A stretch of DNA of 64,000 nt from an uncultured Candidatus Poseidoniales archaeon (GCA_963997415.1 CAXEMN010000006.1:1927-65926), one strand, 5' to 3'. Shown: positions 1,961-61,280, numbered from the stretch's first letter. A program made the numbers and translations. The notes: a model not told the origin generated them from the sequence alone.

Positions 1961-1978
1961 ATTGAGGAGTGAGCATCA

Positions 1979-2998: not shown

Positions 2999-3011
2999 GG
3001 GGGTGAATGAA

Positions 3012-28444: not shown

Positions 28445-28694
28445 GGTTGTTCCTCAGTTTTTCTATGTGCCCGTGAATCTGCCGGAGTGGCAGATGCGCG
28501 ATATTGTGCGTGAGTCCGAGTCCCCCTCATAAGCATGTCCACTCGAACAAATTGGTTTGGCCAAATTGTCGAGTATTCGCTTTGACCTTTGAGAATATAA
28601 AGGAGAAGGACATTTAAGTTAAAAATGTAAAAATAACTCATCGAAAGAACAGAAATTTGTCATTTTCCGGAAAGGAAATTTTTCTTCTTCAAGA
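28445..28694. promoter_or_regulatory. orc1/cdc6 upstream region: candidate replication origin with a DNA-unwinding element
   Basis: 250-nt non-coding spacer next to cdc6. Inverted repeat ATCTGCC-GGAGT-GGCAGAT at 28477-28495. 10-bp palindromes TTTGGCCAAA (28556-28565) and TTTCCGGAAA (28664-28673). A strongly AT-rich stretch at about 28596-28660. Confidence 0.45.
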
Positions 28695-29510
28695 TTATTG
28701 CACTGACCAAATTCGTCCTTCCCGAACGACTCGCAAACCATCCTCGGCATGATTCACATTTGATGGGTGGTTCGGATACGTATCTGTGACCGTTGGAGTT
28801 CGACCTGAACCTGGCGTGTCAACATAGGTATGCGTGATAATGAACTCAACATCTGCATGTTTCTTGGCGATGCTTTCGACGTCCGAAGGTTTGTGGTGGG
28901 TATCAGAATCCACCCATTGTGGCAATCCCATCTCGAGGATCGTCATACTTGATTGAGCGATTTCATCATACAATGAATCACAGGGTCCAGAATCACCGCT
29001 GTGTACAAAACTTCCTTCTTTTCCCTTATCGAAATGATAGCCATAAGGATCTACGGATTCATCATGGTACACGGCAAAGCGATCCCAGGTCAATCCACAC
29101 TCAAGTTCACCGACGGAGGTTTCCCGCCACTGTATACGCTCAAAAGATTCCTCCAAACTTCCAGGATAGGCCAAATCACACAATTGCTTCAAGCGCGCTT
29201 TAACGCCCGGTGCAGCAACCACTGTGAGTGGCTTTTCATTCGCTCGATCAGAGATGTACCGGCGTTCGAGAAGCAGAAAGGGGAAGCCAAACACATGGTC
29301 ACCATGGACATGTGTGATGAAGATTGTTTCGATATCGCTGACGGATTGGCCTTCACGTCGAAGACTTGCAAGTGCTGTTGGAGGGCAATCAATAATGTGT
29401 TTTTTGTCAATCATTGCGAAGGAATGATACCGGCCATAAGGAAGGAAGGCGTTGCCAGTTCCAAGCATCACCACCTCATGCGCCATGATGGTCGGTAAGG
29501 GTGGTTGCAC
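28695..29510 (-). CDS. MBL-fold metallo-hydrolase (RNase Z / beta-lactamase superfamily)
   Basis: 'ITHVHGDHVFGFPFLL' (HxHxDH motif) and later conserved His/Asp residues. Confidence 0.7.
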   Translation of the reverse strand: MQPPLPTIMAHEVVMLGTGNAFLPYGRYHSFAMIDKKHIIDCPPTALASLRREGQSVSDIETIFITHVHGDHVFGFPFLLLERRYISDRANEKPLTVVAAPGVKARLKQLCDLAYPGSLEESFERIQWRETSVGELECGLTWDRFAVYHDESVDPYGYHFDKGKEGSFVHSGDSGPCDSLYDEIAQSSMTILEMGLPQWVDSDTHHKPSDVESIAKKHADVEFIITHTYVDTPGSGRTPTVTDTYPNHPSNVNHAEDGLRVVREGRIWSVQ

Positions 29511-29568
29511 TTGTCTTCATCGGTCACAAATACATATCTTGATACGCAGAATGACTGGTCAAAAATTC

Positions 29569-30396
29569 ATGCCGGAGGGACCAGAAATACGTCGTGCGGC
29601 AGACCGGTTGGGCAAAGCACTGATTGGCAAAAGACTCGTAGAAACCAAACTTCCTTACACGACGTTTCTTGGCCGAGAACATTTGATTGAAGATCAAATT
29701 GTCATTGATGTCACCAGCCAAGCCAAAGCCATGCTGATTCGTTTTGAGAATGGCTGGACAATGTACAGTCACAACCAATTGTATGGCAGATGGACGGTTC
29801 ACTTGAGAACAACTGAACCTCGAATGGGGCGCACGTTACGAGCTGAATTGTGCACAGAAAAGCACGCTGTACGTCTCTGGTCAGCAACAGATATCGATTT
29901 GATTCCGACTGCAGAGGAGCCTCTTCACTCGTTTTTAGCTCGTCTTGGTCCCGATGTGTTGGATGAGGGTGTGACCGTGGACGCACTCTTTTCTCAACTC
30001 AAATCCAAGAAGTGTTTTCGAAAGAAGGCGGCAACCTTGATGCTTGACCAGAGAAGTTTTGCAGGACTGGGGAATTACCTCCGCTCTGAGATTCTCTTTA
30101 TCGCAGGGATTCATCCTGATGACCGGCCATGTGATCTTTCAGAGGAGAAACTCCACACTTGGGCTCAATGCATCAAACAAGTCACTGTACAAGCCTATGA
30201 AACCGGTGGCGTCACCGTTCCAAAAGAGATCGCTGCTGCAGGTAAACGAAGGGGGGAACCACGTAGAACATGGCGCCATTACGCCTTTTGCCGGAATGAG
30301 CGACCATGCTTACAATGTAGCACATTGATTGTTCGACTTCGCTACGGAGGGCGTCGTCTTGACCACTGCCCTAATTGCCAAATGGCTCACCGTTGA
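29569..30396 (+). CDS. nei: endonuclease VIII (Fpg/Nei-family DNA glycosylase/AP lyase)
   Basis: 'MPEGPEIRRAADRL', 'YSHNQLYGRW', 'LGPDVLD', 'LLDQRSFAGLGNYLRSEILF' and the zinc finger 'CLQC...CPNC' are near-collinear with E. coli Nei. The catalytic Pro2 fixes the start at 29569. Confidence 0.9.
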   Translation: MPEGPEIRRAADRLGKALIGKRLVETKLPYTTFLGREHLIEDQIVIDVTSQAKAMLIRFENGWTMYSHNQLYGRWTVHLRTTEPRMGRTLRAELCTEKHAVRLWSATDIDLIPTAEEPLHSFLARLGPDVLDEGVTVDALFSQLKSKKCFRKKAATLMLDQRSFAGLGNYLRSEILFIAGIHPDDRPCDLSEEKLHTWAQCIKQVTVQAYETGGVTVPKEIAAAGKRRGEPRRTWRHYAFCRNERPCLQCSTLIVRLRYGGRRLDHCPNCQMAHR

Positions 30397-43297: not shown

Positions 43298-43474
43298 ACC
43301 CCCCCGAGGAAAAGGCCCTTCTTGAAAGTGATGGAGGCGTACGGTGAGTCTTCACACGCCGTGAACCATGGAAAATCGACATTAGGTTAAAAGGGGGTCG
43401 GCGTGAAGAGGGAGGGGAAGGGCACTGTTAGAGGTTTAAATCATCTCGACGGATTCCTTCTTGGAAGTGGAAAT

Positions 43475-45703
43475 ATGGCCGATGATGAAAACACAATGTC
43501 CTTGCGGGTAGCAAAAGCAATTCCCTCCGATGTCGGCCATGGTCGAGCACGAATCTCGGGAGAAAACGATCTTGGTTTGAAGCCTGGTGATATCGTAGAA
43601 ATCAAAGGCGACAAGCGCTCGACCGCTGCAATCTATTGGCGAAGTCGACCCGAGGACACAAAAATGGAAATCATTCGTGTCGACGGTATCATTCGAAAGA
43701 ATGCCGGCGTGAGCCTCGGTGATCGCGTTACCGTTTCCAAGGTCGAAGCAAAAGAGTGCACCAAGCTTGTGCTCTCACCGGTCATGGCAAACAAACAGAA
43801 AGTGAAGTTTGGTCCAGGGATCGAAGGCTTTGCACGTCGTGGACTCTCAAAGCGGCCTGTCGTTCAGGGCGACCGGATTTTCATTCCTGGCATGACCTTG
43901 TTCGCCGAAGCCCTTCCGTTCGCTGTTGTCAGCACCGTGCCAAAAGGCATTGTCAAGGTGACCAATGACACGGACATCGTCATTAAAGACGAGACCGTTG
44001 ACGATGAAGATGCTGGACAATCCGAAGGCATCACCTACGAAGATGTCGGAGGCATTGGCCAACAATTGCAAAAGGTTCGTGAAATGATTGAACTGCCACT
44101 CAAGCATCCAGAATTGTTCCGACGCCTCGGCATTGATCCGCCAAAGGGTGTCCTCCTCCATGGGCCACCTGGCACAGGAAAAACCATGATTGCGAAAGCC
44201 GTTGCCACTGAAGTGAATGCCCACTTCAAATCAATCAACGGACCTGAAATCATCTCAAAGTACTACGGCGAATCAGAAAAACAACTCCGGGAGATTTTCG
44301 ACGAAGCTGCTGAGAACTCACCGGCGATTGTGTTCATCGATGAAATCGATTCCATCTGTCCAAAGCGTGAAGATGTCAGCGGTGAAGTGGAACGCAGAGT
44401 CGTTGCCCAAATGCTCACACTCATGGACGGTATGCAAGGACGAGACAATGTTGTTGTCATCGGAGCAACCAACCGAAGGGACGCGCTCGACCCTGCCCTA
44501 CGACGGCCGGGTCGATTCGATCGTGAAATTGAGATCGGGGTCCCAGACCGTGAAGGTCGCCAAGAAATCATGGATGTTCATACACGTCAAATGCCAATTT
44601 CTGAAGACTTTGAAATCAACTGGGTTCTTGACAACACCTACGGGTTTGTCGGTGCAGATCTTGCGGCACTCGTTCGAGAAGCAGCCATGAAAGCATTGCG
44701 ACGCTACCTACCTGAAATCGAACTCGATGAAGAGACCATTCCTCCTGAAGTACTCGAAAAGATGGAAGTTCGAATGGACGACTTCAAAGAAGCCATCAAG
44801 GACGTTGAACCGTCTGCGCTTCGTGAAATCTATGTCGAGATCCCAGAAGTGACCTGGGGCGAAGTCGGTGGTTTAGAGGAAGTCAAAGACCGCCTCAAGG
44901 AATCGGTCGAATGGCCGTTAACAAAACCTGAGTTGTTTGAGCACTTTGGCATCAAACCACCTCGTGGCATTGTTCTCTTTGGAGCGCCTGGAACTGGAAA
45001 GACACTCTTAGCAAAAGCGATTGCCAATGAGGCACAGGCCAACTTCATCAGCATCAAAGGACCTGAGCTGATTTCCAAGTGGGTTGGTGAATCCGAAAGG
45101 GCGATTCGTGAAATCTTCAAGAAAGCAAAGCAGTCTTCACCCGCAATCATTTTCCTTGATGAATTCGAATCCATTGCGAGCATGCGCTCATCGAATTCTG
45201 ATGGCTCTGGAAGTGATGTCTCCAACCGAGTGGTGAACCAACTGCTTGCAAGCATGGACGGAGTTGAATCACTCGACGGGGTCATCATCGTCGCTGCGAC
45301 CAACCGCCCTGAAATGATTGACCCTGCACTTCTTCGTAGCGGTCGGTTCGAGCGAGTGCTCCACGTTCCACCGCCGGACCTCGGCGCACGCGAATCGATC
45401 TTTGCCATTCACAGCGAAGGTATGCCGCTTTCGAAGTTCTCTTTGAAGGACATCATCGGTGGCCTTGACGGGTTCACTGGAGCGGACATCGAGGCAGTGT
45501 GCCGCGAAGCCGCCCTCATCTGCATGCGTGCAGGGAAGAAGAAGGTCACAAAGACGCACTTCGAAGAGGCCATCAAGCGGGTACGACCAACGGTGACGCC
45601 CGAGATGCTTGATTACTACCAGAAGATGGAAACTCGACTCACGAGTGGTCTGTCAAACATCAAGCGAAACCGAGACACCAGCTTCGGCATGGAATCAATG
45701 TGA
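43475..45703 (+). CDS. cdc48: CDC48/VCP-type double AAA+ ATPase
   Basis: N-domain ('LRVAKA...GRARI...GDIVEIKG'), D1 Walker A 'GPPGTGKT', D2 Walker A 'GAPGTGKT', and both SRH regions. ATG at 43475 lies about 34 nt downstream of a 'TTTAAAT' TATA-like box (43435-43441). Confidence 0.93.
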
Positions 45704-45774
45704 GCGGGCCCCGGACGTCGACGCATTGATGGGGCGCGTGTTCTTCGCATGAGATGGACAAGGAGTGAACATTC

Positions 45775-46014
45775 GTGGCAATTTTCGCAAGGGACATCAT
45801 TGGAAGAGATGTTGTCGGCCGTCAGGATGAACGGCTTGGGGAATTGAAGGATGTTGCTTTTGACACAGCGACTGGATCCGTGATGTCAATACGAGTTCGG
45901 ATTGAAGCCGATATCGACCCTTCAAAATTACCTTGGTCGATGGTTGACGGCTTGATGGAAATTCCTGTTGATGACATCAGTCGAATCGCCACAAAAATCC
46001 ACTTAAAGCGTTGA
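45775..46014 (+). CDS. PRC-barrel domain protein
   Basis: 79 aa. 'IIGRDVVGRQDERLGELKDVAFDTATGSVMSI' is a typical PRC-barrel core. GTG start 7 nt after AAGGAGTGA. A T6 run at 46034-46039 follows the stop. Confidence 0.7.
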   Translation: MAIFARDIIGRDVVGRQDERLGELKDVAFDTATGSVMSIRVRIEADIDPSKLPWSMVDGLMEIPVDDISRIATKIHLKR

Positions 46015-46150
46015 ATTAACGTCGTAAAGACCGTTTTTTCAAGAAAAGCAGTAACCATTTCGATGAGCATTTGTTTCCCATACAGTAACAACCTTCTAAA
46101 CCGATTTGAAGCCGTCGTCATGTCGGAATCGTGCTCCACTTGGTGATATA

Positions 46151-47758
46151 ATGTTCGGCGAGCGAAACATCAACTACCGAAGGGTCGGCCTCCAAGCCGC
46201 TTTTTGGTTTGTGATGTCACTTCTGCTGATGACCATTCTGCTGAATTTTGTCAACCTTTCAAACACCAATCAGTTGTCTGCATATGATGACGATTGGGAC
46301 GATATGTCAGCATTTAGGGCCGACCTGAAAGCCGCAGATATCAAGACGAGTTCTTTGGTAAGCAGCCCACTGCTTTTGGCCGATATCGAGGATCCTCGAA
46401 ACACAACCTACATCGTGGCTGGAGTTGAACGAGACACCCTTTCACTCCCACAATTCGATGAAGACGGTTTCATCACTATTGCGGCAGAAGATGGCTATTC
46501 GCCATCTGAGATCAATGCCATTGTGGAATTCGTAGAAGCTGGAGGTACAGCCTTGGTCCTCGATGATTATGGCTTTGCAGGAACCATTGCCGAAGCCTTT
46601 GGCATTCGCTACACTGGATACCAATTGTATGATACGACCTATGTGCCTGAATTGGATTACAACTTCATTTGGATGTGTGTTCAAGCAACCCCGTGTGGCA
46701 TGAACGGCACCACCATTGACGCCAGCACCCTTTCGGTCCACGACCGATGGAGTGGAAACTTAGGCGAAGGAGAGCATCCTTGTGCTGCCCTCAACGGTCA
46801 AACCATGCCGATTGAAGAGGCTGGGCTGTGCGCTCATCACTGGCAGGCTGGAGAAATTCGATACAATTCCACCTACCAAGTTCTGCTCAACGACATTACC
46901 GCATTGGAACTGATTCCAGGAGCGATCGGAGCGCTCCCTGAAATTTCAGTTCGAGCCGTGACAAGCAATGAAGCAACCGTTGACGTCAATGGCGATGGAG
47001 AAATTTGGGTTGGCAATGAACAGAATTCTGAAACCCCCGACCTATGGGGTCAATTCAACCTCAGTTTCGAAGCATGCGCTCGTAGCACGTGTGATCCAAA
47101 CGACGGTGGCCGGATTGTCTTCATGGCGGATGGATCTGCATTGATCAACGCCATGTACGACTACGAAGGTTTCAACGATGGTGAATATGGCCCAACCAAC
47201 AAAACAATCCCTGAAAATGACAACCGAAAGTGGGCTATGGATTTCATTGCTGAGGCATTGATGTCGACAGAACCTGACGAAGCGGGGCAACCTTCGCCAA
47301 CCGCCATGGTCATCTTCGATGAATCGAGGCACCCTCAAAACGCACTTCTAGCGGATTCATACAACACCATCTACTTCCTTCTGGTGTACTTTACCGGAGA
47401 AGGCCTTGCCATGCTCCTGCTCTTCTTGGTGCTGTTCGTGACCTTTGAAGCCGTTCTGCTCAAGAAGCGAGATCCCGAGCCATGGCGCCACGTCTTCAGC
47501 ATCATTTACTACGGGTTTGGTGATGCTAATCGCTACACATACTACGCGAAGAGCGAGAAAATCCGACAGGTGTTCCTCTCGAAGGTTCGCAATCAAAACG
47601 GCCTCACTCGTGAAGAGTTCCATGCCATGCCGGCAAAGGATCTTGTTGCCCTCATCAATGACCCTGTGCTTGCGAAGTTTGCTATTGAACCCAGCAAGTA
47701 CTCATTAGAACAAACCGTGGCTGTGGTGAAGAGAATCAAAGCGTGGGGCAGAACCTGA
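46151..47758 (+). CDS. membrane-anchored extracytoplasmic protein, possibly DUF4350-like
   Basis: N- and C-terminal TM helices bracket a ~400-aa exposed domain. 'GGTALVLDDYGF' resembles the DUF4350 motif (weak recollection). ATG at 46151 follows GGTGAT. Confidence 0.6.
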   Translation: MFGERNINYRRVGLQAAFWFVMSLLLMTILLNFVNLSNTNQLSAYDDDWDDMSAFRADLKAADIKTSSLVSSPLLLADIEDPRNTTYIVAGVERDTLSLPQFDEDGFITIAAEDGYSPSEINAIVEFVEAGGTALVLDDYGFAGTIAEAFGIRYTGYQLYDTTYVPELDYNFIWMCVQATPCGMNGTTIDASTLSVHDRWSGNLGEGEHPCAALNGQTMPIEEAGLCAHHWQAGEIRYNSTYQVLLNDITALELIPGAIGALPEISVRAVTSNEATVDVNGDGEIWVGNEQNSETPDLWGQFNLSFEACARSTCDPNDGGRIVFMADGSALINAMYDYEGFNDGEYGPTNKTIPENDNRKWAMDFIAEALMSTEPDEAGQPSPTAMVIFDESRHPQNALLADSYNTIYFLLVYFTGEGLAMLLLFLVLFVTFEAVLLKKRDPEPWRHVFSIIYYGFGDANRYTYYAKSEKIRQVFLSKVRNQNGLTREEFHAMPAKDLVALINDPVLAKFAIEPSKYSLEQTVAVVKRIKAWGRT

Positions 47759-47767
47759 GGTGAGATC

Positions 47768-49021
47768 ATGTGGACACGTAAGGCATCATTCACATTCACT
47801 GGAGGGATCGCTCTGGTGCTCATCGGGATGATGATTTCCAACCTTCAAATGATGATCTTAGGGTTGACCTTCGTTGCCTTCATCGTGGTTAATTCGTGGA
47901 TTTCAGGCCACGGCGAAGTCGAGGTTCAGCGAACACTTTCTGCAGACAACCTCTACAAAGGCGATGACTTGTATGTCGAATTGCTTGTCACGAACCGTTC
48001 CAATAGGAACACCCAGTTGCTCGAAGTCTACGATAATATTCCCCATGAGATGAAATTACGGAGTGGCCTCAATCAAATGCGACTCAACCTAAAGCCAGGT
48101 GAAAGTGCGCGAATCCGCTACGTACTGCGATGCCCATTACGAGGACACTATTCCATCGGGCCTGTTTCGCTCCGTTCACGCAATACCTTCAATCTCGGTG
48201 TCGATGAAATGTATGTCGATCACCACAGTGACATCGTGATTTTCCCACAAATCAAGGAAGTCGAGGAAGCGTTCCTTCGATCTCGCACTCCAAAAATGTA
48301 CACTGGAGCGACAACACTCCGAACACCTGGACAGGGTTCCGAATTTTACTCACTTCGCGAATATGTCCCCGGCGACCCGTTCAAGAACATCAATTGGAAG
48401 GCTTTCGCCCGAACTGGAGAGTTGATGGTCAACGAAAAGTGTCGAGATGCGGTGACTGACCTGTATTTATTGCTGGACAGTCGAGATATTTCTCGAATCG
48501 GAACCGTGCTCAAGAACCCGCTCGAAATGGGAACCGTTTCTGCAGCCAGCCTTGCTGCCTTCTTCCTCAAGCGACGGGACTCCGTTGCTCTGGCCATTTT
48601 CGATGAAAAGCTCTCCTACCTACCACCAGATACCGGTGACAAGCAGTACTTCAAAATCCTGAGCGCCCTTGCTGGAGTCTCGCCAAAGGGTGCAATGCCA
48701 CTTCAAGCCGTGACCAACTCCCTCAGTGGCCGTTTCAGTCGAGGCAGCCCGGTGTTCATCATCTCCTCGTGTGAAGGCGACGGAACCGTCCCTGCTGCCG
48801 TAAGAGATTTGGTCGGCAGAGGTCACGAAGTGACCGTCTTATCGCCATCGAGCATCGACTTTGAACGCTTGGTCAGCAGGATCCCACGTATGTCCTACGA
48901 AGTGCTCAAACTTGAGCGTCAAAACAGACTCACCACACTCGCTGGTTCAGGAGCGCAAGTCATTGATTGGATGCCCGACATGGACCTTTCTCAAGCATTG
49001 ATGCAGGTAAGGGGGTACTAA
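47768..49021 (+). CDS. DUF58-family protein (vWA-like, normally MoxR-associated)
   Basis: Two N-terminal TM helices. The signature 'FYSLREYVPGDPFKNINWKAFARTGELMVNE' is the hallmark DUF58 motif. Confidence 0.8.
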   Translation: MWTRKASFTFTGGIALVLIGMMISNLQMMILGLTFVAFIVVNSWISGHGEVEVQRTLSADNLYKGDDLYVELLVTNRSNRNTQLLEVYDNIPHEMKLRSGLNQMRLNLKPGESARIRYVLRCPLRGHYSIGPVSLRSRNTFNLGVDEMYVDHHSDIVIFPQIKEVEEAFLRSRTPKMYTGATTLRTPGQGSEFYSLREYVPGDPFKNINWKAFARTGELMVNEKCRDAVTDLYLLLDSRDISRIGTVLKNPLEMGTVSAASLAAFFLKRRDSVALAIFDEKLSYLPPDTGDKQYFKILSALAGVSPKGAMPLQAVTNSLSGRFSRGSPVFIISSCEGDGTVPAAVRDLVGRGHEVTVLSPSSIDFERLVSRIPRMSYEVLKLERQNRLTTLAGSGAQVIDWMPDMDLSQALMQVRGY

Positions 49022-49023
49022 GC

Positions 49024-50247
49024 ATGGCAGATGATGTTGGCCTCCAAAAAGACGTCACCGTTGGTGGAGATTACCGTCCGAGAACGCTTCATCTCAAATT
49101 GTTGAGAAAGCAATGGCAAATTTTGGCTCTGCAAATCATCGCAACCGTCGCTCTTGTCGGGATGTACCTTGAAGTCGTATCGACCTATGTTGTTGGCTCA
49201 ATTGACCACACCATGCTGTTTGATACAATCGAGGTCTTGATCGGACAGCAGCTTCCAATTGGGGACTTCCTTACCGGTGAGGGAAGCTCTGGTCTTGGGC
49301 GATTCTCAGTTCCACTTGTACTTGGGCTTACACTTGGTGGAAGCATGGCGCTGCTCGCCTTCCAAACACCAAAAACCCAGCAGAGAATCAAACTTGGTTT
49401 CATCATCACATTGATTGTCATGTTGATTGGAAGACTGGTCGTATCGTGGGGCTTTGGCATGCTCACCAGTTTCGACCTACGTCTTCCAGATCAAGCAGAA
49501 CTTTCAACCCTAGAATGGCCACTGCTGATGATTTTGTCGTTGATGATTTTGTTCATGTACCTGCTACCTGTCATCATGGGCACCCGTGGAATTTGGGGCT
49601 TATCTCGCCGTTCAATTGCATGGTCGATTGGTTTCACCCTGCTGTTCCTTGGTATCCACGCCATCCTAGCGTTCCCGCTCATCAACGGACAATTAGGCTC
49701 GTATGGGGATGCGCTGACAACGGTGGAGACGCAATTTACCGAACCGACCATTGGACTGTTTGGATTGATGCTGGTCACCAATGAACAGTTCGCTCTGATC
49801 ATGATTGCCGTGCTCATCATGGTGTTCCAAGAGTCCTCATATGGTGTCATTCGATACCTTGAGTATGCATATCGGCTTCCTGAGTCGTGCAAGCGAGACC
49901 CGGAATATGTTCGACAAATGGACAACGTGCTGAACACACATCTGAAGCACACCTTTGGCTTCCTTGGCCTGACCGGAATCGCAACAATGGTCGCCCTTGG
50001 ATTCCACAGCGTTCTGCTCGACATCGTCGAAGGATCAACTGGAAGTCAATGGGCTGGACAAGTCTCTGAATCCATTGAATTATCACTCACCTACGGCTTG
50101 GTGATTTCGGCACTGATGTTTTTGAGCATCATGGCTTTGTTGAGGTTCTTTGTCCCTTGGGAACGTGTATGGGGACTTGTCAACACCATCCGTGGTGAAA
50201 ATCAGGCTGCACCAGTTGCAGCGACGAAAGACGTCGTTGATCTCTAA
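49024..50247 (+). CDS. polytopic membrane protein of unknown function
   Basis: ATG at 49024, 2 nt after the DUF58 stop. About 9-10 hydrophobic helices. No family recognised. Confidence 0.65.
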   Translation: MADDVGLQKDVTVGGDYRPRTLHLKLLRKQWQILALQIIATVALVGMYLEVVSTYVVGSIDHTMLFDTIEVLIGQQLPIGDFLTGEGSSGLGRFSVPLVLGLTLGGSMALLAFQTPKTQQRIKLGFIITLIVMLIGRLVVSWGFGMLTSFDLRLPDQAELSTLEWPLLMILSLMILFMYLLPVIMGTRGIWGLSRRSIAWSIGFTLLFLGIHAILAFPLINGQLGSYGDALTTVETQFTEPTIGLFGLMLVTNEQFALIMIAVLIMVFQESSYGVIRYLEYAYRLPESCKRDPEYVRQMDNVLNTHLKHTFGFLGLTGIATMVALGFHSVLLDIVEGSTGSQWAGQVSESIELSLTYGLVISALMFLSIMALLRFFVPWERVWGLVNTIRGENQAAPVAATKDVVDL

Positions 50248-50255
50248 TTGGCAAT

Positions 50256-50498
50256 TTACCAGACACGTTGTAACACGCGTCCAAGGAATTCGGTAAACAG
50301 CATGAGCCCAATGGGTAAGCCACACCAGCCCACAATGAACGAGAGCCATGCTGGAGAATCGATGGCATCCATTGCACTTGGTTGAAGGACAACAAACCCA
50401 ACAACAGCAGCGACAAACAAAAGGCGCTCGAGAACCATTGGATAGGCACGACCAGGAGATTCATCGCGAGCCATGAGTGTCGTAGCCTCTTCTGACAT
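50256..50498 (-). CDS. small two-TM membrane protein
   Basis: 80 aa with two hydrophobic helices ('LLFVAAVVGFVVL', 'WLSFIVGWCGLPIGLMLFTEFL'). Starts 9 nt after the stop of the 1057-aa gene on the same strand. Confidence 0.45.
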   Translation of the reverse strand: MSEEATTLMARDESPGRAYPMVLERLLFVAAVVGFVVLQPSAMDAIDSPAWLSFIVGWCGLPIGLMLFTEFLGRVLQRVW

Positions 50499-50507
50499 TC
50501 AACCACC

Positions 50508-53500
50508 TCAAAGATCCAATCCAGAGAGTCGTGCTTCCAATGCCGCAAGTGCGGGATCTACTTTCACTTCAACGACCGGTTCTTTTCGGTGCTCCCAAGA
50601 AGCGTCGAGTTGTGCTAACTCAGCTTCTAAGGCGGCTCGTTCATCGCTACCTTCGCCATCCATCGAGACGACTGGAATTGGCTCAGCATGGACTTGAGTT
50701 GTGGCCTCTGATTCTACAGCATCATCAACTGGAACAGGCATTGATTCCCAGCCATCTTCATTGGAGGATGAATGTTCTGGAGTTGCATCGAGCGAGACTG
50801 GTACTTCACCGGCAAGAGACGATTCCATGGTTGCAACCATTTCGGTCTCGACGGGGGTGCGCTGAGAGGCTGGAACGGATTCTCGCTCATATGGGAGCAG
50901 GCCATCGCGCTGGAATTCCCAGAGCATACCTCTTGGTACTCCGTCTGCAAGACCAGATGCATCGAGTTGTGTGATGAGTTCCTCAAGCACACGAGCCGTG
51001 TCTTCCAAGGCTACAGCCTCTCCTGCATCCCTTTGGTCCGCCTCAAGATAGATATCATCCAATGCGACTTGAATCAGTTTTCGAGTCGCCTGAGCAATGC
51101 TCGGTAATGCTTCTGGGCGAGTGCAATTGTTGAGCAGGGCTTCCACTTCCTCTGGCGGAGCACCCAATCGAACCAGTTGCTCGAGCACATTTCTCAATCG
51201 ACGAAGCATGGTGATCGAACGGTCATAATCTTCGAGAAGGTGTTCCAAATCGATGACGACATGGCCTACAGTTTCACCAAGTTGGTGTTCCAGCCGCTGT
51301 TGAACCGACCAGCGTGCGAGCCCTCGAACTGCCCCTGCGGTTTGCGGCACTTGACGTTCAAGCAAGGTCATGACTTCGCTTGACAAAAGATGCCGTGGTG
51401 TGGCTGCGACATGGTCCACTGTGGATTGAATCACTTGAAGGCCACGCTCAACAGCCCGGTCGAGTAAGGTCACAGAGTACCCCAAAGCCCGGGCATGTTC
51501 GAGCCGTTCGAGGACAGGGCCAAGGCCGTCAAAGGTGGCAGCATCATCAAGCAAGGCTTGGGCGAGTGGTTCTTCCGCGAGCCTCGCCCGTAGGCGCTCA
51601 GCTTCCTGAATATCCGTCACTGCCGCTTCATGGGCATCTGACAAGGCTTCTGCTCGCTCGATCAATGAAGCAAGTTCTGCTTCAGAATGACCACGACGTG
51701 CACCAAGGTCACCCAATTCGCGTAGAATTTGACGGCGTTCTTGCATCAGTTCTCGCAACTCTGCTTGAACTTGGGCTTGCCTCGCCTCATCCGCAGCTAA
51801 GCGGTCACGATCTTCTTCAGCCCGGCGACGGCTCGCCTTCGCCTCTGCCTCGATAGCGGCAAGTTCCGCGGTATTTGTTTTGACTTTCTCATCGAGCAGG
51901 AGGACTTCGGCTTGAGCTCGAGCGTGGCGTTCTCGTGTTGCAGCAACCTGTTCCTGAAGAACTTGAAGGCGACGCTCATCGTCCTCTGTTTGTTGCCGTA
52001 TCGTTGCCAATTGTTGGCTGTGAGTGTCGAGTTCTGCATTGAGTTCTGCTTCCTTGAGCGACATGTCTTCGATCGCTGTACGAAGCGATTCGCTGGAGGA
52101 TGCATCCCCGAGTGCTTTGGCCAACTCTGCAGCCCGCACTGAGACTTGATGTTCAAGTTCATTGACTCGACGAACCAGACGCTCTGCTCGATTTTCTGCT
52201 TGCTCTGTTAATGCCTTGGCTTGCGCCAATTCAATTTGCATTGTGCTAAATTGGCTGTGAGCCTCCTCAAGAGAGGTCGTTGATTCCGTACGGGTTTCAG
52301 TGGCTTCTCTTGCTATGATTTGTGCAGCATTTGCTGCTGCAATTGAGGAATCCAAGTGACTTTGAAGAGCGGCCTTTTCCTTCTCCAATTCATCAATTCG
52401 ATGATCTGCAGTTTCTAGACGCCGACGTAATCCAGCATCCACAGCCAAGGGTTGGGCCGTATCGCCGGGCAAACCACCGCTCACAACATCAACAGTTTCT
52501 GAAAATGTAGCCCTGGCTCGACTCTTGCGCAATTGTTCCATTCCAATTTCAAAGCCAAACAAATCGTTCAGTTTTGCCTTGAGGGTGGCCCTGCGGCTCT
52601 CCGAACGAGTCCGGAGCGTCACAAGCAAATCATGGAAATCATCAAGCTTGAATTCTTCAACTGTGCCGGATTCTCTTGAAATGATGCTTCCTGCAGGGAG
52701 TCGGTGCAACTTCAAGAGGCGAGTGGAATCTGTGAAGGTCAGCATGGCCTCTTCGAGGGACTGTCCCTCGGGAGCGGAAACACCCACAGGCACACCTCGT
52801 GCCAGCAACACCGAAACGGATGTCGAGGATTGACCGGATTGAAGATGGCCAGTGACCTGTTCCTTGACGCCAGCGGTGAGCATGGACAAGATTGCATCCG
52901 GACCACCTCGGCCTTCACGAAGGACAAAGCCATCAGGAATTGGACCACCGGCTGCGCCAATGGCTCCAACTTCCCCATCAAGAACTGCAGCCACTGCAGA
53001 AATCAATCGCGCATGGTTGGTATTCGCCTCGGTCCACACACCCAATGACACGTCACCGGCTTTGGCTAAGAGAAGCGAGCCATCTTCATGGTGCATCGTC
53101 CAATGACTTCCATTACTGACGCCATCCTCATCGAGCACGCTGATGTTCATGGATTCAAGTGTGGAATGGATTTCTTGTGCCAACATTTCTGGAGAATTAG
53201 GCAAGTCGCCAACGCTGTCGATGAGCATACCTTGATCGATAGCAACGGCGCCACGAACGGTATCGCGTTCCACAACAGCCCGTAGCACGGAAGACAAATC
53301 TCTGGCGAGAAGACGAACAACAGCGTCGCCACGAGGTAGGAGTCCCTGGCGGTCTGCTTGATGCTCAAACGCTTCAGGGATTGTTTCTGCCACACTCCCA
53401 AGGCCGGCGAGCGAATATGATCCTGCGATGTGACGGCAATGTTCCTTCGCCTCAAGTTCCTCGAGCCTCAGGCGAGCTTCCTTTCCTGCAAGCAAAAGTT

Positions 53501-53681
53501 TGCCTTTCCCGGATTCTGCAAGCCAACCAACAACACGGCCTGCTCGAACCAGCCGGTGCCCTGCTGGCGTTTTTCTTCGGCCAATCCATGTGCTGATGAC
53601 GCCGTGGTCGAATGATTGAATCGCACCAGCCTCGACAGAAATTGCGCCTTCAACTGGTGTTCCTTGTGGTAGTGTAAACAT
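50508..53681 (-). CDS. 1057-aa protein: Roadblock/LC7-like N-terminal region, long central coiled coil, acidic C-terminus
   Basis: Residues ~125-235 ('VRGAVAIDQGMLIDSVGDLP...LLLAKAGDVSLGVWTEANTNHARL') look Roadblock/LC7-like. Residues ~395-745 are an uninterrupted A/E/R/L/Q heptad-like coiled coil. The C-terminal ~100 aa are Glu/Asp-rich. Confidence 0.75.
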   Translation of the reverse strand: MFTLPQGTPVEGAISVEAGAIQSFDHGVISTWIGRRKTPAGHRLVRAGRVVGWLAESGKGKLLLAGKEARLRLEELEAKEHCRHIAGSYSLAGLGSVAETIPEAFEHQADRQGLLPRGDAVVRLLARDLSSVLRAVVERDTVRGAVAIDQGMLIDSVGDLPNSPEMLAQEIHSTLESMNISVLDEDGVSNGSHWTMHHEDGSLLLAKAGDVSLGVWTEANTNHARLISAVAAVLDGEVGAIGAAGGPIPDGFVLREGRGGPDAILSMLTAGVKEQVTGHLQSGQSSTSVSVLLARGVPVGVSAPEGQSLEEAMLTFTDSTRLLKLHRLPAGSIISRESGTVEEFKLDDFHDLLVTLRTRSESRRATLKAKLNDLFGFEIGMEQLRKSRARATFSETVDVVSGGLPGDTAQPLAVDAGLRRRLETADHRIDELEKEKAALQSHLDSSIAAANAAQIIAREATETRTESTTSLEEAHSQFSTMQIELAQAKALTEQAENRAERLVRRVNELEHQVSVRAAELAKALGDASSSESLRTAIEDMSLKEAELNAELDTHSQQLATIRQQTEDDERRLQVLQEQVAATRERHARAQAEVLLLDEKVKTNTAELAAIEAEAKASRRRAEEDRDRLAADEARQAQVQAELRELMQERRQILRELGDLGARRGHSEAELASLIERAEALSDAHEAAVTDIQEAERLRARLAEEPLAQALLDDAATFDGLGPVLERLEHARALGYSVTLLDRAVERGLQVIQSTVDHVAATPRHLLSSEVMTLLERQVPQTAGAVRGLARWSVQQRLEHQLGETVGHVVIDLEHLLEDYDRSITMLRRLRNVLEQLVRLGAPPEEVEALLNNCTRPEALPSIAQATRKLIQVALDDIYLEADQRDAGEAVALEDTARVLEELITQLDASGLADGVPRGMLWEFQRDGLLPYERESVPASQRTPVETEMVATMESSLAGEVPVSLDATPEHSSSNEDGWESMPVPVDDAVESEATTQVHAEPIPVVSMDGEGSDERAALEAELAQLDASWEHRKEPVVEVKVDPALAALEARLSGLDL

Positions 53682-53690
53682 TTCATCAAC

Positions 53691-54029
53691 TCACTGTGGG
53701 GTGGTGGCAAAGATCCTTCGATCTCTATCAATGGCATGACGCCAGCGTGCCAAGCGGCCGCCAGAACCGGACAATGCTACAACCCGTGTTGGGGACGCCA
53801 CGTCAATCATTGTACGTTCCTTCCCTTCACACCAAACCTCGTAGATTGCTCCCAATCCAAGAGCATCTGCCGCTTCGAGAGCAGCGGATAGGACGTCCAC
53901 TGCATGATCGACTGGTGGTATTGCGCCCTCATCGCCAACGCTCGCCAATAGAGAACCACTGTCATCGAACAACATGGCTTGTTGAACGCCATCAAGGCGA
54001 TACAATCCGGCCAGCGCACGTTGTAACAT
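53691..54029 (-). CDS. Roadblock/LC7 (MglB-like) domain protein
   Basis: 112 aa. 'LDGVQQAMLFDDSGSLLASVGDEG' and 'RVVALSGSGGRLARWRH' fit the Roadblock/LC7 alpha-beta-alpha pattern. Its stop is 9 nt upstream of the start of the 1057-aa gene. Confidence 0.65.
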   Translation of the reverse strand: MLQRALAGLYRLDGVQQAMLFDDSGSLLASVGDEGAIPPVDHAVDVLSAALEAADALGLGAIYEVWCEGKERTMIDVASPTRVVALSGSGGRLARWRHAIDRDRRIFATTPQ

Positions 54030-54252
54030 GGATGCTCAAACCTCTCGTCAGCGTTGTGGCCTTCAAGAAGGTTGCTGTTTCCATCCCCCTAAAGGGGGAT
54101 TTGCAGACCCAAATCAATTTCCCAACTGGACTTCATCGTTTTGAAACGCGGAAGAGCTTGGGTGCGCTTCTTTCCGCGTACAGTTGCCGCCACGAACGCA
54201 TAGATCTGGCGACACAAATGATTCCATTCGTGCTTTCTTTTGTGAAATTAAT

Positions 54253-54296
54253 CAATTGAAAAATTAAATTTCCAATTGGAATATTTGATTCAATTG
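54253..54296. promoter_or_regulatory. three spaced CAATTG-core palindromes (operator-like sites)
   Basis: TCAATTGA (core 54253-54258), TTCCAATTGGAA (core 54273-54278, a perfect 12-bp palindrome) and TTCAATTGGA (core 54291-54296). Centre spacing is 20 and 18 nt. They lie 45-90 nt upstream of the ttuA-like start, in AT-rich DNA. Confidence 0.4.
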
Positions 54297-54339
54297 GACC
54301 GCCCTATGAACCAAATCCGAGCGGGGAGTTCAAACCACA

Positions 54340-56783: not shown

Positions 56784-56943
56784 TCCTCACTCCTAAGAAG
56801 GCGGTGAACGACACCCATGAACATTCCCGTCATATCCATTGAAATTCGTGGCTCTAAACCACAGCAAAATACGCTCAACTCTGGCATGGAGCGAGGGTAC
56901 AGCGGAGCGGAGTGATTATCACTGTGCGCTCAAAGTCGCGGTC

Positions 56944-58707
56944 ATGGTGGACGCTTGGGCTGATGTAGAAACGGCAATTCAAGCTGCCATACAACAGCGT
57001 AAACAGCGCCTTGAGAGGCTCACCAGTGCATCAGCACTCGTTCTTCTTGCTGGAGCCTTGTGGTTGATGTGGCCCAGTTTAAACGCCGCTATGCGAGGTG
57101 AGTCTGGGCTACTCAAGGGACTGGGCTTTCCTTTAGTCATCATCGTTTGGGGCCTGATCATACAGGATTTGACTGTCGATCAACCCCGTGCACGGACAAG
57201 AGTAGGCTCTGCCGCAAGCGTCGTATGGCCGATTCTATTGATGACAGGAAGTCAATCGCTCGACATCTCAAACACGAGCATGGTCGCTGGAAGTCTGATT
57301 CTTGTGATGGTCGGCCTCGCTTGCTTGAATGCCTCCAAAGCAATTCTACAAGGTGGACTTGACGTCCTTAGGTGGCGGGCGATCATGACAGGGCTTGGAA
57401 CCATCGTGGCGTTCTCGATCTTTGCCGGTGCACCTCCAGAATCGATGACTTATGAGTGGTTAGCTGCCATTGGAACACTCGGATTCAGTTCCGTTTTGAC
57501 CGCCTACATCTGGTTCGTCGGTGATGACCAACGCACTGCACGCAGAGCGTTTAGCCGTCGCCTTGATGCTCTTGAAGTCCGTTTACTTGAACTGAAAGCA
57601 CAAGGTGCGGCCGTGGATCAAGCTTCGAGTTTGATCATGACGGCAAAAGAAGAGGGACACGTGGATCCATCTCATGGAATGAATCTTCTCGACGAAGCAG
57701 AAGATGACATTGAGAGGTCACTTTCACTGTCTGGCGATGTTGAAGCGATCCGAGAGGATGCTCGAGCGGCAATGGATGAAGCAGAAGCTATTGCTCCTAC
57801 CGCAAAGCGACCGCGTAAATCCTTTGAAATGGGAGAACGAGAAGTCAAACTCGGTTCGCTTCGCGAAGGTGAAATGCTCTTTCGAACCTCAAAGAAGTAC
57901 TCAAATGAAATCATTGAATGGTGGTCTGTTGCAGAAAAGGCAATCGCTGAAGCCGCACGACAACTCCAAGGGAACGATGGTGAAGGCGTAGCCCACCTCA
58001 AAGAAATGCTGAGTGATGCAAAGAAGAAGTTGGCTGCAGAGGCGCCAAAGAAAGCCTACGAATTTGCTGTTGTCATTCCTGCTCAACTCGCGGCAGACGA
58101 TGATGCACTCGGGAAGGCTGCAGAGTCGCTCAAAGAAGCACATCGGCAACTGAAGCAAACCGATGGACTCGATACGAAAGCAATGATCGAACGACTCGAA
58201 CATGCTGAGTCGGCTCTTGAGTCAGGTAACGCAGGCCAGGCCATCGGGCTCGCTGACGGTGTCGTGCGTTCAATCCATAACGAGCGTGAAGCCATGGATA
58301 CCGTTCAGCGCGCACTTCGTCAGCGAAAGAAACTCGTTGCTCAATATGAATCAAGAGACGATCGAAAAGAATGGGATGACCGTATGGCTGCCATCGAAAA
58401 AGCGGCTGATCAGCGACAATGGACCGAGGCGGCTGAGTTGTTGAGCGCTATGAATCAAAGCCTGGACAAAGAAGGTAAAGCAAGCGAAGAGGCACTTGAG
58501 TTGTACGATTTCGTTATGGATGAATGGCGCATCTTGCGCAACCAATGTGAAGCCGCACACATTTCTGTTGAGGACGACGATCGGAGAGCTGTTGAAGAGG
58601 CCATTGCCTTAGCAGAAGAGAGCCTTGGCGTTGGACGGGTTGAAGATTGTTTGGAGCATCTTGGACTTGCAGATGCAGCCATGGAACGATTACGTCGCCG
58701 GATCTAA
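56944..58707 (+). CDS. membrane protein with a long cytoplasmic helical-repeat/coiled-coil C-terminal domain
   Basis: About 6 TM helices in the first ~230 aa, then ~350 aa of A/E/L/R-rich helices with a recurring 'L..AE..L..G....A' motif. First ATG at 56944; the track ORF begins at a TTG at 56839. Confidence 0.65.
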   Translation: MVDAWADVETAIQAAIQQRKQRLERLTSASALVLLAGALWLMWPSLNAAMRGESGLLKGLGFPLVIIVWGLIIQDLTVDQPRARTRVGSAASVVWPILLMTGSQSLDISNTSMVAGSLILVMVGLACLNASKAILQGGLDVLRWRAIMTGLGTIVAFSIFAGAPPESMTYEWLAAIGTLGFSSVLTAYIWFVGDDQRTARRAFSRRLDALEVRLLELKAQGAAVDQASSLIMTAKEEGHVDPSHGMNLLDEAEDDIERSLSLSGDVEAIREDARAAMDEAEAIAPTAKRPRKSFEMGEREVKLGSLREGEMLFRTSKKYSNEIIEWWSVAEKAIAEAARQLQGNDGEGVAHLKEMLSDAKKKLAAEAPKKAYEFAVVIPAQLAADDDALGKAAESLKEAHRQLKQTDGLDTKAMIERLEHAESALESGNAGQAIGLADGVVRSIHNEREAMDTVQRALRQRKKLVAQYESRDDRKEWDDRMAAIEKAADQRQWTEAAELLSAMNQSLDKEGKASEEALELYDFVMDEWRILRNQCEAAHISVEDDDRRAVEEAIALAEESLGVGRVEDCLEHLGLADAAMERLRRRI

Positions 58708-61280
58708 GACGAAAAGTCGAGAAGGCCCTTGTTTTGAATGGACTTCAAATCAAGGCCACCTGGGAAACCAAGGTCGACTGGCATGCCACCAATGGTGACC
58801 ACAAGACCAGTGAGATGCAAGAACAAACAAGCAGGCAAGGCGGACTGGTCGATTTTAGCAAGCATCTTCCAACCGTTGATTCCTTTCTTTGCAGCAATGG
58901 TCAATTCATTATCAGGTCCATTTGCAATCCAAGCATTTGCCGACCATGCATGCTGCCGTTCAGACTTCTTGTTAAATTCAGGAGGGGGTGAAACCACGTG
59001 CTTATTTGCCCATACCTCTGCAACATTCAATCCAGATTCCGTGGCCCATTCCATGTCGGTAATTTCACTTGAACTGTGAGGGGTGAGACCAGACCGTGAG
59101 AGGTGGCCAAGCAAGGCCCTCAAATGTGGGTGCCGTCCATGCTCCTTTGCAAGTTCCTCTGCCATGACAACAGCGGTGTTTACTCGCCCTTGATCCAGAT
59201 GCAGGAGACAGCGAACCACCTCGCCATGAATCCATGATTCAATGGCGTTTTTCTTGATGAACCGTTCGAGCAGGTCAAGCGCATCTTCGCTTCGTCGAGC
59301 CAAACGCATCCTTGCAATATCCCCAAGAAGGAACATGCGACCTGCCGGTGTGTTCAAACTCTTCAGTTCAGAACATGCGGTGTTTGACTCGAAGCGTTGT
59401 ACGAGATCGATGTTTCTTTTTGTGGTGCTATCCATGGCCAGTAATGGTTTGTACCTCTTGTCGAGTGGTCGGCTTTTCGGCTTGAACAGAGAGGCGACCC
59501 ATTGAAGGCGTGCGCTTTCGATGTCATCTTCAGCCAAGAGGTTCAAACGAGGTTTTGCCTCTGGTAAATCACGCTGAGCGAGGCTGGCAGCAGCAAGGGT
59601 CAGTCGTGCCATTTCTGCTTCTTTCCCACCGCGTAAAGCCAGCAGAGACACCGCCTGTTCTTCTGCTTCGTTCCATCGGCCAAAACCAGAATACAACGTC
59701 ATGATTGCACCGGTTTTTCGCCCGAGTGCAAGCCCGTCTAACTCCTCACCGTGACCTTTGAGCACATCATCAAGTTGGCCAAGAGCTTTCACCCACTCAT
59801 CATTGGCGATGAGTGTGGTCAAGGGTTGCTTCTTGAGATAAATCATATCTTCCATCTCAGAAAATCGCGCACGATTTCCTTCAACGGCTGCATCAAAGGT
59901 AATGTCGTCGAGGCGGGATCCAACGCGTAGCGATTTCGTCCATATGGTGAGGAAAGCAACTTGACCTCCAGAAGAGAGCATCCATGTCAATTCCTCTAAG
60001 GCGTCCTTGGTCAAAACGGCACAAACGGTTGAATCCCAGGTGCCGCATTGAGCCTGCTGAGGCAAGAAACTGGAATCCCAGAAGGTGATCATACCAAGCG
60101 CAAGCAGAAGCATGGATTGACCAGCAAATCCAGTAAAGCAGAAGTTCAACACTTTGGCTTGCTGCGAACGTTCTGCACGAAGCAAACGACTGTCGGCGAG
60201 TTTGATCCCTCCAGCGCCAGAAACGTCTTGTACGTCCAAGAACAAAATTCTGGCAACTTCATAGACAAACAAAAATCCAATGATGGCGACGTTCAAAAGC
60301 AGGAACAGCAGCACCATCGAAACGATAGGCACCCTAATGCCCTCAACAGGAATAAACGAAAAGAGTTCGATTAAACCAAACCCAAGCAAGCCACCTTCTT
60401 CCATAAATGTGGTCTGTGGCCGGTACTCTGGTAGAGCGAGAACTCGGTCCGAATGGGAAAGGAGGGTTGGGTTCCACAGCAGCACGGCAAGAGAAAGGAA
60501 GGTGTTGAATGCAACGAAGGGCATTGCTACGAGGTTGAAATTAACAATTTGAGCCACTGCCTGTTGGCGGGGACTTGGCGTATGGTTGTGGAAAGGAGAA
60601 GGTTCGCCCCCAGCGATTTTCTTTGAAGACTGTCTGAGCGCCCTCCACGATGACCCAAGAATTCGCCCATAGGCCAAAACCGATGGTGAGAACATAGCAA
60701 ATGCTGCAATACTAAAGCGCCGGTCATCTGGGACATCTAGCAAACCAAGTGCGATGTAGAGCATCGCAACCAAGCCCATCCAAAAGGCGAGAAGGATGAT
60801 GTAACTGTAGCTACGAAGCGCACTGGAATCTTGCAATGATGCACGATCTTGCCCAATTGGTTTGATGACCTGGGCACCCAATGAAGAGCCACTGGAAACG
60901 AGCGCTGGAAGAGCAATGAACATCAAAGCGATCGCCAATGATGGAGCATGGTAGCCCTCTGCGAGATCGAATCGAGCCATCAAGAACTCAAAGAGGAGAA
61001 TCAAAACTCCAACCAGGGCGAACAAGTAGGTGGTGACCCCGAATCGCATCCCTGGAGATTGAAGTAGGGCCTTTGCATCTTCAGTGCTATGGGTCACCCG
61101 ATGCACTTCATAGCGTAATTCTCCAGTCTCAAATGCAACCTGCAATCCTCTAAGTTGGCGAGGAACAACTTGCCTCCAAAAGAACCACGCAGTCGATGCC
61201 GCAAGAAGCATCGGCACCACTGCTGCGAGTGAAAACCCGTCAACAATTGGTGGTGCATTCATCAAAAAAACCTCGGTCAA
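58704..61280 (-). CDS. large polytopic membrane protein with a TPR-like C-terminal domain
   Basis: 858 aa. About 12 hydrophobic helices in the first ~430 aa. The C-terminal half is helical with TPR-like A/L/G/Y spacing. Its start overlaps the thrS stop by 4 nt. Confidence 0.7.
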   Translation of the reverse strand: MTEVFLMNAPPIVDGFSLAAVVPMLLAASTAWFFWRQVVPRQLRGLQVAFETGELRYEVHRVTHSTEDAKALLQSPGMRFGVTTYLFALVGVLILLFEFLMARFDLAEGYHAPSLAIALMFIALPALVSSGSSLGAQVIKPIGQDRASLQDSSALRSYSYIILLAFWMGLVAMLYIALGLLDVPDDRRFSIAAFAMFSPSVLAYGRILGSSWRALRQSSKKIAGGEPSPFHNHTPSPRQQAVAQIVNFNLVAMPFVAFNTFLSLAVLLWNPTLLSHSDRVLALPEYRPQTTFMEEGGLLGFGLIELFSFIPVEGIRVPIVSMVLLFLLLNVAIIGFLFVYEVARILFLDVQDVSGAGGIKLADSRLLRAERSQQAKVLNFCFTGFAGQSMLLLALGMITFWDSSFLPQQAQCGTWDSTVCAVLTKDALEELTWMLSSGGQVAFLTIWTKSLRVGSRLDDITFDAAVEGNRARFSEMEDMIYLKKQPLTTLIANDEWVKALGQLDDVLKGHGEELDGLALGRKTGAIMTLYSGFGRWNEAEEQAVSLLALRGGKEAEMARLTLAAASLAQRDLPEAKPRLNLLAEDDIESARLQWVASLFKPKSRPLDKRYKPLLAMDSTTKRNIDLVQRFESNTACSELKSLNTPAGRMFLLGDIARMRLARRSEDALDLLERFIKKNAIESWIHGEVVRCLLHLDQGRVNTAVVMAEELAKEHGRHPHLRALLGHLSRSGLTPHSSSEITDMEWATESGLNVAEVWANKHVVSPPPEFNKKSERQHAWSANAWIANGPDNELTIAAKKGINGWKMLAKIDQSALPACLFLHLTGLVVTIGGMPVDLGFPGGLDLKSIQNKGLLDFSS

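Follow-up and report, generated by a model that had tools for sequence, protein, structure and literature searches.

A three-gene Roadblock cluster with a coiled-coil giant, a candidate membrane-anchored scaffold of Poseidoniales

In a 64,000-nucleotide stretch of DNA from an uncultured Candidatus Poseidoniales archaeon (GCA_963997415.1, CAXEMN010000006.1:1927-65926; hereafter the window), three adjacent genes encode a small Roadblock protein of 112 residues (gene 1), a 1057-residue protein of 115 kDa, referred to as the giant, in which a Roadblock domain is joined to a long coiled coil and a helical C-terminal domain, and an 80-residue membrane protein (gene 3). Together they look like a variant of Roadblock-based scaffolds that has so far not been described, is particular to this order and has a new core domain. 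It is proposed here that the three genes form one operon and that the encoded proteins build a Poseidoniales-specific scaffold anchored in the membrane, a reading to which a probability of about 0.4 is given. The genes supply a list of parts, and from that list we infer every interaction among the products. Poseidoniales, also known as Marine Group II (MGII), are uncultured and are among the most abundant archaea of the surface ocean; to our knowledge, almost nothing is known about their cell biology. The Roadblock fold builds GTPase-linked positioning platforms in eukaryotes and bacteria.

The window is chromosomal and belongs to a member of the Poseidoniaceae; its proteins have their close relatives in metagenome-assembled genomes of Poseidoniales. 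The genes are located among ordinary archaeal housekeeping genes (NcsA, PyrB, PyrI, CDC48, Orc1/Cdc6 and ThrRS), and on either side of the giant a gap of 9 nucleotides (nt) separates its open reading frame (ORF) from that of its neighbor, exactly as had been described, together with the minus strand of all three, in an earlier note made from the sequence of the window. The trio recurs in the same order in species-representative genomes of Poseidoniales, a joint occurrence on which that note had made its proposed system depend, and in both families of Poseidoniales the Roadblock gene and the giant remain neighbors. Of 87 loci, 82 have a Roadblock-like ORF whose end is 4-11 nt upstream of the giant, and 83 have a small ORF downstream of it, mostly at a distance of 8-9 nt; the loci in which a flanking ORF was not detected are mostly cut at a contig end. 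At locus L086, the upstream gene looks frameshifted or uncalled, and the downstream ORF chosen by the script fails to align with the gene 3 family. The arrangement is also retained by orthologues at 34-41% identity, namely in the Thalassarchaeaceae locus L084 (123 residues, giant, 89 residues), in L087 (114 residues with a weak PF03259 match, giant, 72 residues) and in L085 (giant, then 83 residues). In many species, the Shine-Dalgarno-like motifs GTGAT and GAGGTG are found ahead of both internal start codons, and the second overlaps the stop codon of the giant. The conservation of these motifs before both internal start codons fits a single polycistronic mRNA.

Gene 1 belongs to the Roadblock/LC7/MglB superfamily. 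The window protein matches the Pfam family PF03259 at E=0.0033 and 17.6 bits, under the gathering score of 23, and 17 of 19 members of its family match PF03259, the best at 2.8e-7. A profile of the family, compared with solved structures, matches 7yh1 (E=0.004) and, more weakly, 7f8m and LAMTOR2, and the Roadblock/LC7-like call made for this gene is thereby upheld at the level of the family. In the family alignment, a basic C-terminal helix (GGRLARWRHAxDRDRRI) is nearly invariant, and the last 25 residues of the product have an isoelectric point (pI) of 12.0.

In the full-length giant of the window, no Pfam domain was detected. One Roadblock domain is nevertheless confirmed, at residues ~125-240. 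In an AlphaFold2 model of residues 1-410 (mean predicted local distance difference test score, pLDDT, of 53.5), residues 129-233 follow the order alpha-beta-beta-alpha-beta-beta-beta-alpha, which is the canonical Roadblock topology, with a pLDDT mostly of 50-73 that falls below 50 at residues 178-199. When the model was compared with the PDB using Foldseek, all of the top 50 matches were Roadblock, LAMTOR or MglB structures, at E of about 1e-5 and with target template modelling scores of 0.45-0.79, mostly 0.65-0.79. In addition, a profile of residues 118-245 built from 16 diverse members matches CvnB5 of Streptomyces (3leq, E=6.5e-5), and 8 of the 16 members, taken singly, match PF03259. The Roadblock-like segment that had been noticed at 52976-53309 (residues ~125-235) is therefore real, with the caveat that the confidence of the model is moderate in this part, and structure and profile searches support the fold for both Roadblock candidates. 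A profile-profile comparison of the small protein with the N-terminus of the giant gave a weak local match alone, in the alpha1-beta1-beta2 region, with a probability of 6-11%.

The first 124 residues of the giant (D0; pI 8.98) carry the conserved motifs MFxLPxG, at the start, and KTPxGHRL; no match was obtained for them with a PDB sequence profile, nor with Pfam in the full-length window protein. The alpha/beta segment at residues 241-350 (D2) was modelled with a pLDDT of 60-86 (75-86 over residues ~261-320), and no significant PDB or Pfam sequence match to it was found. A further Roadblock domain in either of these two segments was considered and is without sequence support. Since the Foldseek output does not locate the matched part within the N-terminal model, it stays conceivable that residues 241-350 may be a distant Roadblock- or longin-like fold. 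In the basic linker that follows, the motifs RTRSExR and GFExGxE are conserved.

The C-terminal helical domain is the best-conserved part of the giant, about twice as conserved as the rest: compared with the most distant family members, it keeps 60% identity and the N-terminal domains keep 31%. This most constrained part of the system had been passed over by the earlier note. An AlphaFold2 model of residues 690-1057 (pLDDT 74.9) contains a confident, all-helical domain at residues ~720-950; over residues ~720-940 the pLDDT is mostly 81-93, with one 10-residue block at 66. Its best Foldseek match in the PDB has E=1.2, a PDB sequence profile gave nothing significant, and Pfam gave no match. The tail behind it, previously described as highly acidic, indeed holds 27 acidic and 6 basic residues over positions 936-1057 (pI 4.05). 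It consists of a variable acidic linker followed by two conserved amphipathic helices (residues 322-342 and 354-364 of the modelled fragment), and in the giant family the C-terminus reads LxxLExxLxDL(D/E)(L/I/M)-COOH. The acidic tail helices of the giant and the basic C-terminal helix of gene 1 carry complementary charges. The product of gene 3 has two hydrophobic stretches by hydropathy (residues ~22-40 and ~49-70) with a variable loop between them, in line with the two-membrane-helix protein first reported, and two motifs that flank the predicted helices are conserved, YPxxLER ahead of the first and ExxGRxxQ behind the second.

In the proposed scaffold, the giant would dimerise through its coiled coil; with an extended, parallel coil, the resulting rod would measure roughly 40 nm. 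In the Roadblock superfamily, homo- or heterodimers form through the beta-sheet edge and helix alpha2. As dimers, Roadblock proteins serve as platforms for assembly (Tran et al. 2024, PMC10933270). Because all of the matched solved Roadblock proteins are dimeric, the Roadblock domain of the giant is proposed to pair with itself or with the 112-residue protein, which would build up a platform comparable to the stacks of Roadblock dimers in Ragulator or MglB/MglC. The 80-residue protein would tether the complex to the cytoplasmic side of the membrane via its conserved N- and C-terminal motifs, and the C-terminal helical domain, together with the acidic C-terminal helices, would bind a client that is very conserved and encoded elsewhere. 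The likely role would be non-catalytic, namely spatial organisation at the membrane, such as placing the machinery for division, motility or the cell surface. The cytoskeletal, polarity or tethering module envisaged in the earlier note is likewise a putative one, read from the domain content.

Several observations weigh against this scaffold. The overall confidence of the N-terminal model of the giant is low, and the membrane topology of gene 3 is a prediction from hydropathy alone. Conservation of the gene 3 protein is poor, at 31-68% within its family, and the gene, which is found in most lineages, is absent from the P0180 lineage, the most divergent one. In its place, that lineage (L082, 13221-14567) has a gene for a 448-residue FG-GAP repeat protein that overlaps the 3' end of the giant by 50 nt. 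This substitute, with hydrophobic segments at both its N- and C-terminus, is a membrane protein too, a point in favor of the scaffold; the upstream gene of the lineage encodes a divergent Roadblock-like protein. Furthermore, a region of ~20 kb is collinear throughout the order: pyrB-pyrI, ncsA and the trio, then, convergently, genes for a ~400-residue membrane protein, DUF58, DUF4350, a PRC barrel and CDC48. As the whole neighborhood is collinear, adjacency alone is weak evidence of shared function, and it is the tight spacing and the translation signals that carry the argument for an operon. The conserved three-gene order that had been anticipated is thus partly borne out: it recurs across the order, but the small membrane gene is not universal and the order is embedded in a collinear neighborhood.

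The giant itself was followed beyond these loci. A profile of its N-terminal 410 residues, compared with 1.84 billion representative proteins, defined a family of 72 proteins, in which the full-length members are all 1020-1089 residues long and the others are fragments; the named sources are Poseidoniaceae, Thalassarchaeaceae, Poseidoniales and unclassified 'Euryarchaeota'. Scanning species-representative genomes gave 212 matching stretches, and the best 80 loci, which were retained, are all from Poseidoniaceae or unclassified MGII. Poseidoniaceae, Thalassarchaeaceae and unclassified MGII lineages have orthologues at 34-48% identity, and these are flanked by the same small genes. A homologue search with the most distant member returned the query itself alone, and coiled-coil words had probably swamped the candidates in that search. 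Since the best 80 loci of the genome scan are all MGII, the architecture of the giant appears to be an order-specific invention of Poseidoniales. One locus (L070, NZEQ01000033.1) carries the full Poseidoniales gene block and is deposited as 'Verrucomicrobiales bacterium', a name that probably stems from faulty binning or labelling. Searches of the literature that paired Roadblock with Marine Group II, Poseidoniales or Thermoplasmatota gave nothing on this locus, in agreement with the initial statement that no characterised equivalent was known.

Roadblock proteins of the MglB kind act together with small GTPases, and a GTPase partner had not been seen near the three genes. The scans agree: a Walker A motif and NKxD do not occur together in any ORF of the window, and Pfam detected no small GTPase and no further Roadblock gene in 51 of the larger ORFs of the window. 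Likewise, no GTPase was found within 10 kb at L082, L084, L085, L086 and L087, the distant orthologues with flanking sequence, and the cognate MglA-family GTPase within about four genes that marks coupled MglA/MglB systems is missing. This absence was given too much weight at first. Orphan Roadblock genes are common, as 328 of 749 MglB homologues are orphans, with two in Aciduliprofundum (Wuichet & Sogaard-Andersen 2014, PMC4316618), so that a missing GTPase is unremarkable and a distant partner elsewhere in the genome is possible. Such a partner is central to a rival explanation that we regard as unlikely, in which the Roadblock domains are a GTPase-activating protein and/or guanine nucleotide exchange factor for a Ras-like GTPase encoded elsewhere and the giant localises their activity to a defined site of the membrane, in a polarity or positioning oscillator like that of MglA, MglB and RomR. 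The fold would suit this, with MglB among the structural matches; small GTPases of the unclassified Rup type are present in Thermoplasma and Aciduliprofundum (supplement of PMC4316618), and orphan MglB proteins in related Thermoplasmatota (PMC4316618). The GTPase, however, is missing from both the window and the surroundings of the distant orthologues, group 4 MglA is found, among archaea, almost exclusively in methanogens, none of the orphan MglB proteins had been characterised by 2014 (PMC4316618), and the C-terminal domain, not the Roadblock domains, is the part that is best conserved.

Roadblock genes of archaea frequently lie within type IV pilus loci (Makarova et al. 2016, PMC4858521), which also favors an MglB-like switch, as the window has one such locus. 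This type IV pilus or archaellum-like locus (434-4610, plus strand) encodes a T2SSE-family ATPase and two T2SSF-family membrane proteins; it is 46 kb from the Roadblock operon and is only a lead. The MglA/MglB systems of Myxococcus and Thermus, with MglC and RomR, resemble the Poseidoniales cluster in the Roadblock fold, MglB being among the top structural matches, and in the case of MglB/MglC also in having two Roadblock-containing products encoded side by side, for which a spatial or positioning role is plausible. They differ from it in that an MglA-type GTPase is missing here, both from the operon and the rest of the window and from the 10 kb around the distant orthologues with flank, and in that a Roadblock domain of the cluster is fused to a ~290-residue coil and a helical domain, with a membrane protein encoded alongside.

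It is distinctly unlikely that there is no joint system, i.e., that the three genes act independently and are adjacent through general chromosomal collinearity. The order of pyrB, pyrI, ncsA, CDC48 and DUF58 is kept even beside a 34%-identical orthologue, and the exchange of the third gene in one lineage also speaks for unconnected genes. In contrast, the three genes are on the same strand, their gaps of a few nt are kept in more than 80 species, and conserved Shine-Dalgarno-like motifs overlap the preceding stop codon. Two of the neighboring proteins share a dimer-forming domain, and the trio stays intact where its flanks are rearranged, as in L029, L032 and L035, in which pyrBI is inverted.

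The 310 nt between gene 1 and the divergent ncsA are better conserved than the protein of gene 1 itself. Besides the elements listed in Table 1, this region contains CAGTTGG, of which AGTTGG is invariant; the near-invariant block of ~32 nt occurs once per locus, always about 45 nt ahead of the start codon, and the upstream motifs are unique within the window. The stem of the hairpin is ATCCCCC/GGGGGAT, TCCCCCC/GGGGGGA, CCGGCCC/GGGCCGG or TCGTCCT/AGGACGA, depending on the clade, and the hairpin is missing in the genus Poseidonia. A known RNA family was rejected, since the region has no match in Rfam and RNAalifold gave no overall consensus structure, with stem changes in the single hairpin alone. 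A leader peptide upstream of gene 1, or an N-terminal extension of it, was also rejected because the reading frames misfit. The region probably serves the operon as promoter/operator and 5' leader, or is possibly a small RNA.

As CvnB5 is the best sequence-level match of the Roadblock domain of the giant, the conservons of Streptomyces were also considered. A module of this type, with Roadblock proteins passing on the signal of a membrane component, would have its membrane protein in the cluster. However, no gene for a histidine-kinase-like CvnA sensor, a CvnC (DUF742) protein or a CvnD GTPase is present among the Pfam-annotated neighbors, and the 80-residue protein has a short, variable external loop and no sensor domain, which makes a sensory module improbable. 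Ragulator (LAMTOR1-5, with Rag GTPases) also resembles the proposed scaffold: it is a membrane-anchored platform of Roadblock dimers with an elongated helical scaffold, a likeness that is here drawn from genes alone, and the structural and profile matches include LAMTOR2, 4 and 5. The Poseidoniales cluster encodes two products with a Roadblock domain and a membrane protein; a Rag-like GTPase with its own Roadblock domain was not found nearby. The anchor here would be a predicted two-helix integral membrane protein, and that of Ragulator is a lipidated wrapping peptide; the cluster encodes two Roadblock domains, and only the fold is shared, with no other sequence relationship. The LC7/Roadblock light chain of dynein, which is bound to the intermediate chain, offers a further parallel, since a small Roadblock dimer could clamp a long helical partner independently of a GTPase. 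It differs in that there is no motor here and in that the 112-residue protein and the domain of the giant keep the C-terminal helix, and both are therefore of the 'RB' type and not of the shorter 'LC7' type.

The top structural and profile matches for both Roadblock domains are Asgard Roadblock proteins (Thor-RB and MK-D1 RB; 7f8m, 7yh1, 9jue). These are archaeal single-domain homodimers that stand alone or are fused to GTPase or longin domains, and none has been described with a coiled-coil giant or with the C-terminal domain found here. The archaeal Dip system for divisome positioning consists of the DipA GTPase, DipB (DUF2073) and DipC (Zn ribbon), and no such Pfam match was obtained in the three proteins; the Dip GTPase oscillator and the PRC-barrel/CdpB division proteins are unrelated to the three genes.

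The coiled coil of the giant is real, but it is neither 350 residues long nor unbroken, as had been claimed. Heptad periodicity rises above shuffled controls at residues 415-645 and 665-704, ~290 residues in total, and the coil is interrupted at two conserved, Gly-containing breaks (residues ~522-532, ELAKALGDxxS, and 646-664, RELGDLGARRG); in the window giant, residues 426 to ~650 are free of Gly and Pro. A chromosome-organising or DNA-tethering protein of the SMC/Rad50/MukB kind is highly improbable, and membership is effectively refuted: NCBIfam and PADLOC do give weak SMC, Rad50 and JetC matches, the N-terminal domain and the linker are basic, and some orthologues are annotated at source as 'nucleic acid-binding Zn-ribbon protein', but the matches are confined to the coil (residues ~410-705, 25.7 bits against a cut-off of 567), the motif scan found no Walker A motif, in agreement with the first description, the models of both ends lack the ATPase heads with Walker A and B motifs, and a hinge or zinc hook is lacking, since the only cysteines, at residues 82 and 853, are isolated and form no CxxC. 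The matches are thus coiled-coil noise, and a weak tropomyosin-type match to the coil is likewise of the coiled-coil kind. A known anti-phage defence system was rejected as well, as the PADLOC matches are limited to the coiled coil and the locus is within a collinear housekeeping stretch.

Table 1. Coordinates of the three genes, the parts of the giant and the upstream elements in the window.
Feature	Position	Strand	Description or basis
Gene 1, 112 residues	53691-54029	-	ORF; single-domain Roadblock/LC7/MglB-type protein; PF03259 in the family, PDB Roadblock profile matches
Giant, 1057 residues	50508-53681	-	ORF
Giant, residues 1-124 (D0)	53310-53681	-	Basic; alignments; low-confidence model; fold without known match
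Giant, residues 125-240, Roadblock domain	52962-53309	-	AlphaFold2, Foldseek, profile, PF03259
Giant, residues 241-350 (D2)	52632-52961	-	Alpha/beta, beta-alpha-beta-beta-beta-alpha-beta; AlphaFold2
Giant, residues 351-414, basic helical linker	52440-52631	-	Model helices 346-355 and 361-390; pI 9.68
Giant, residues 415-704, coiled coil of ~290 residues	51570-52439	-	Heptad periodicity
Giant, residues 705-935, all-alpha C-terminal domain	50877-51569	-	Conservation, AlphaFold2
Giant, residues 936-1057 and stop codon, acidic tail	50508-50876	-	Composition, model helices
Gene 3, 80 residues	50256-50498	-	ORF; two predicted membrane helices; hydropathy, family alignment across both families
Conserved non-coding region	54030-54300	-	Alignments of 41 to 77 species
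Near-invariant block of ~32 nt	54047-54078		41 aligned species
Hairpin	54083-54100		Position fixed, stem differs by clade
Inverted repeat CGCGGAA-N18-TTCCGCG	54147-54178		Arms invariant, loop free
Three CAATTG boxes	54253-54296		Upstream region

Other features were observed in the window. The convergent neighbor of the trio is a same-strand cluster of CDC48, PRC barrel, DUF4350, DUF58 and a 426-residue membrane protein (43403-50247), whose last stop codon is 8 nt from that of gene 3. Its DUF58 protein (47768-49021, plus strand) has 92-100% identity among species of Poseidoniaceae and 76-82% identity with the order's most distant lineages, a conservation that equals that of CDC48 and exceeds that of PyrB. 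A 79-residue ORF (45775-46014, plus strand) directly follows CDC48, and the same position holds an annotated PRC-barrel gene in related loci. The adjacency of CDC48 and PRC genes is frequent in archaea, and the PRC-barrel protein CdpB acts in FtsZ-based division in haloarchaea (bioRxiv 10.1101/2023.03.28.534520). Further along, a 622-residue protein (56839-58707, plus strand) without a Pfam match has a hydrophobic N-terminal half and a charged C-terminal half that is probably helical, judged by sequence only, and an 858-residue protein (58704-61280, minus strand) has a weak TPR match alone; the synteny of both is kept across Poseidoniaceae. The Orc1/Cdc6 gene (27203-28444, minus strand) adjoins the stretch of the window with the lowest guanine-cytosine content (0.47, about 28000-30000), and the two could mark a replication origin region. 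An 837-residue ORF (21515-24028, plus strand) matches no Pfam family at E<=1e-5.

The module of Roadblock protein, giant and mostly gene 3 is kept across both families of Poseidoniales, and its core domain is without a known relative. If the scaffold proposal is true, the Roadblock fold would here be used without a linked GTPase, and, up to the survey of 2014 (PMC4316618), no orphan of this kind had been the subject of experiments. The scaffold would also give a handle on the organisation of the envelope in Poseidoniales cells. A bolder and rather doubtful form of the proposal would see in the cluster an independently evolved archaeal counterpart of Ragulator-type scaffolds. It would be a membrane-anchored platform of ~40 nm, with its C-terminal domain recruiting a core machine of the cell (division, archaellum or pilus, or surface-protein export), its GTPase encoded elsewhere or dispensed with, and the leader, with a hairpin that covaries by clade, serving as a dedicated regulatory element. 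If this Ragulator-like form is true, the three genes would represent a new system of spatial organisation in archaea that are abundant in the surface ocean.

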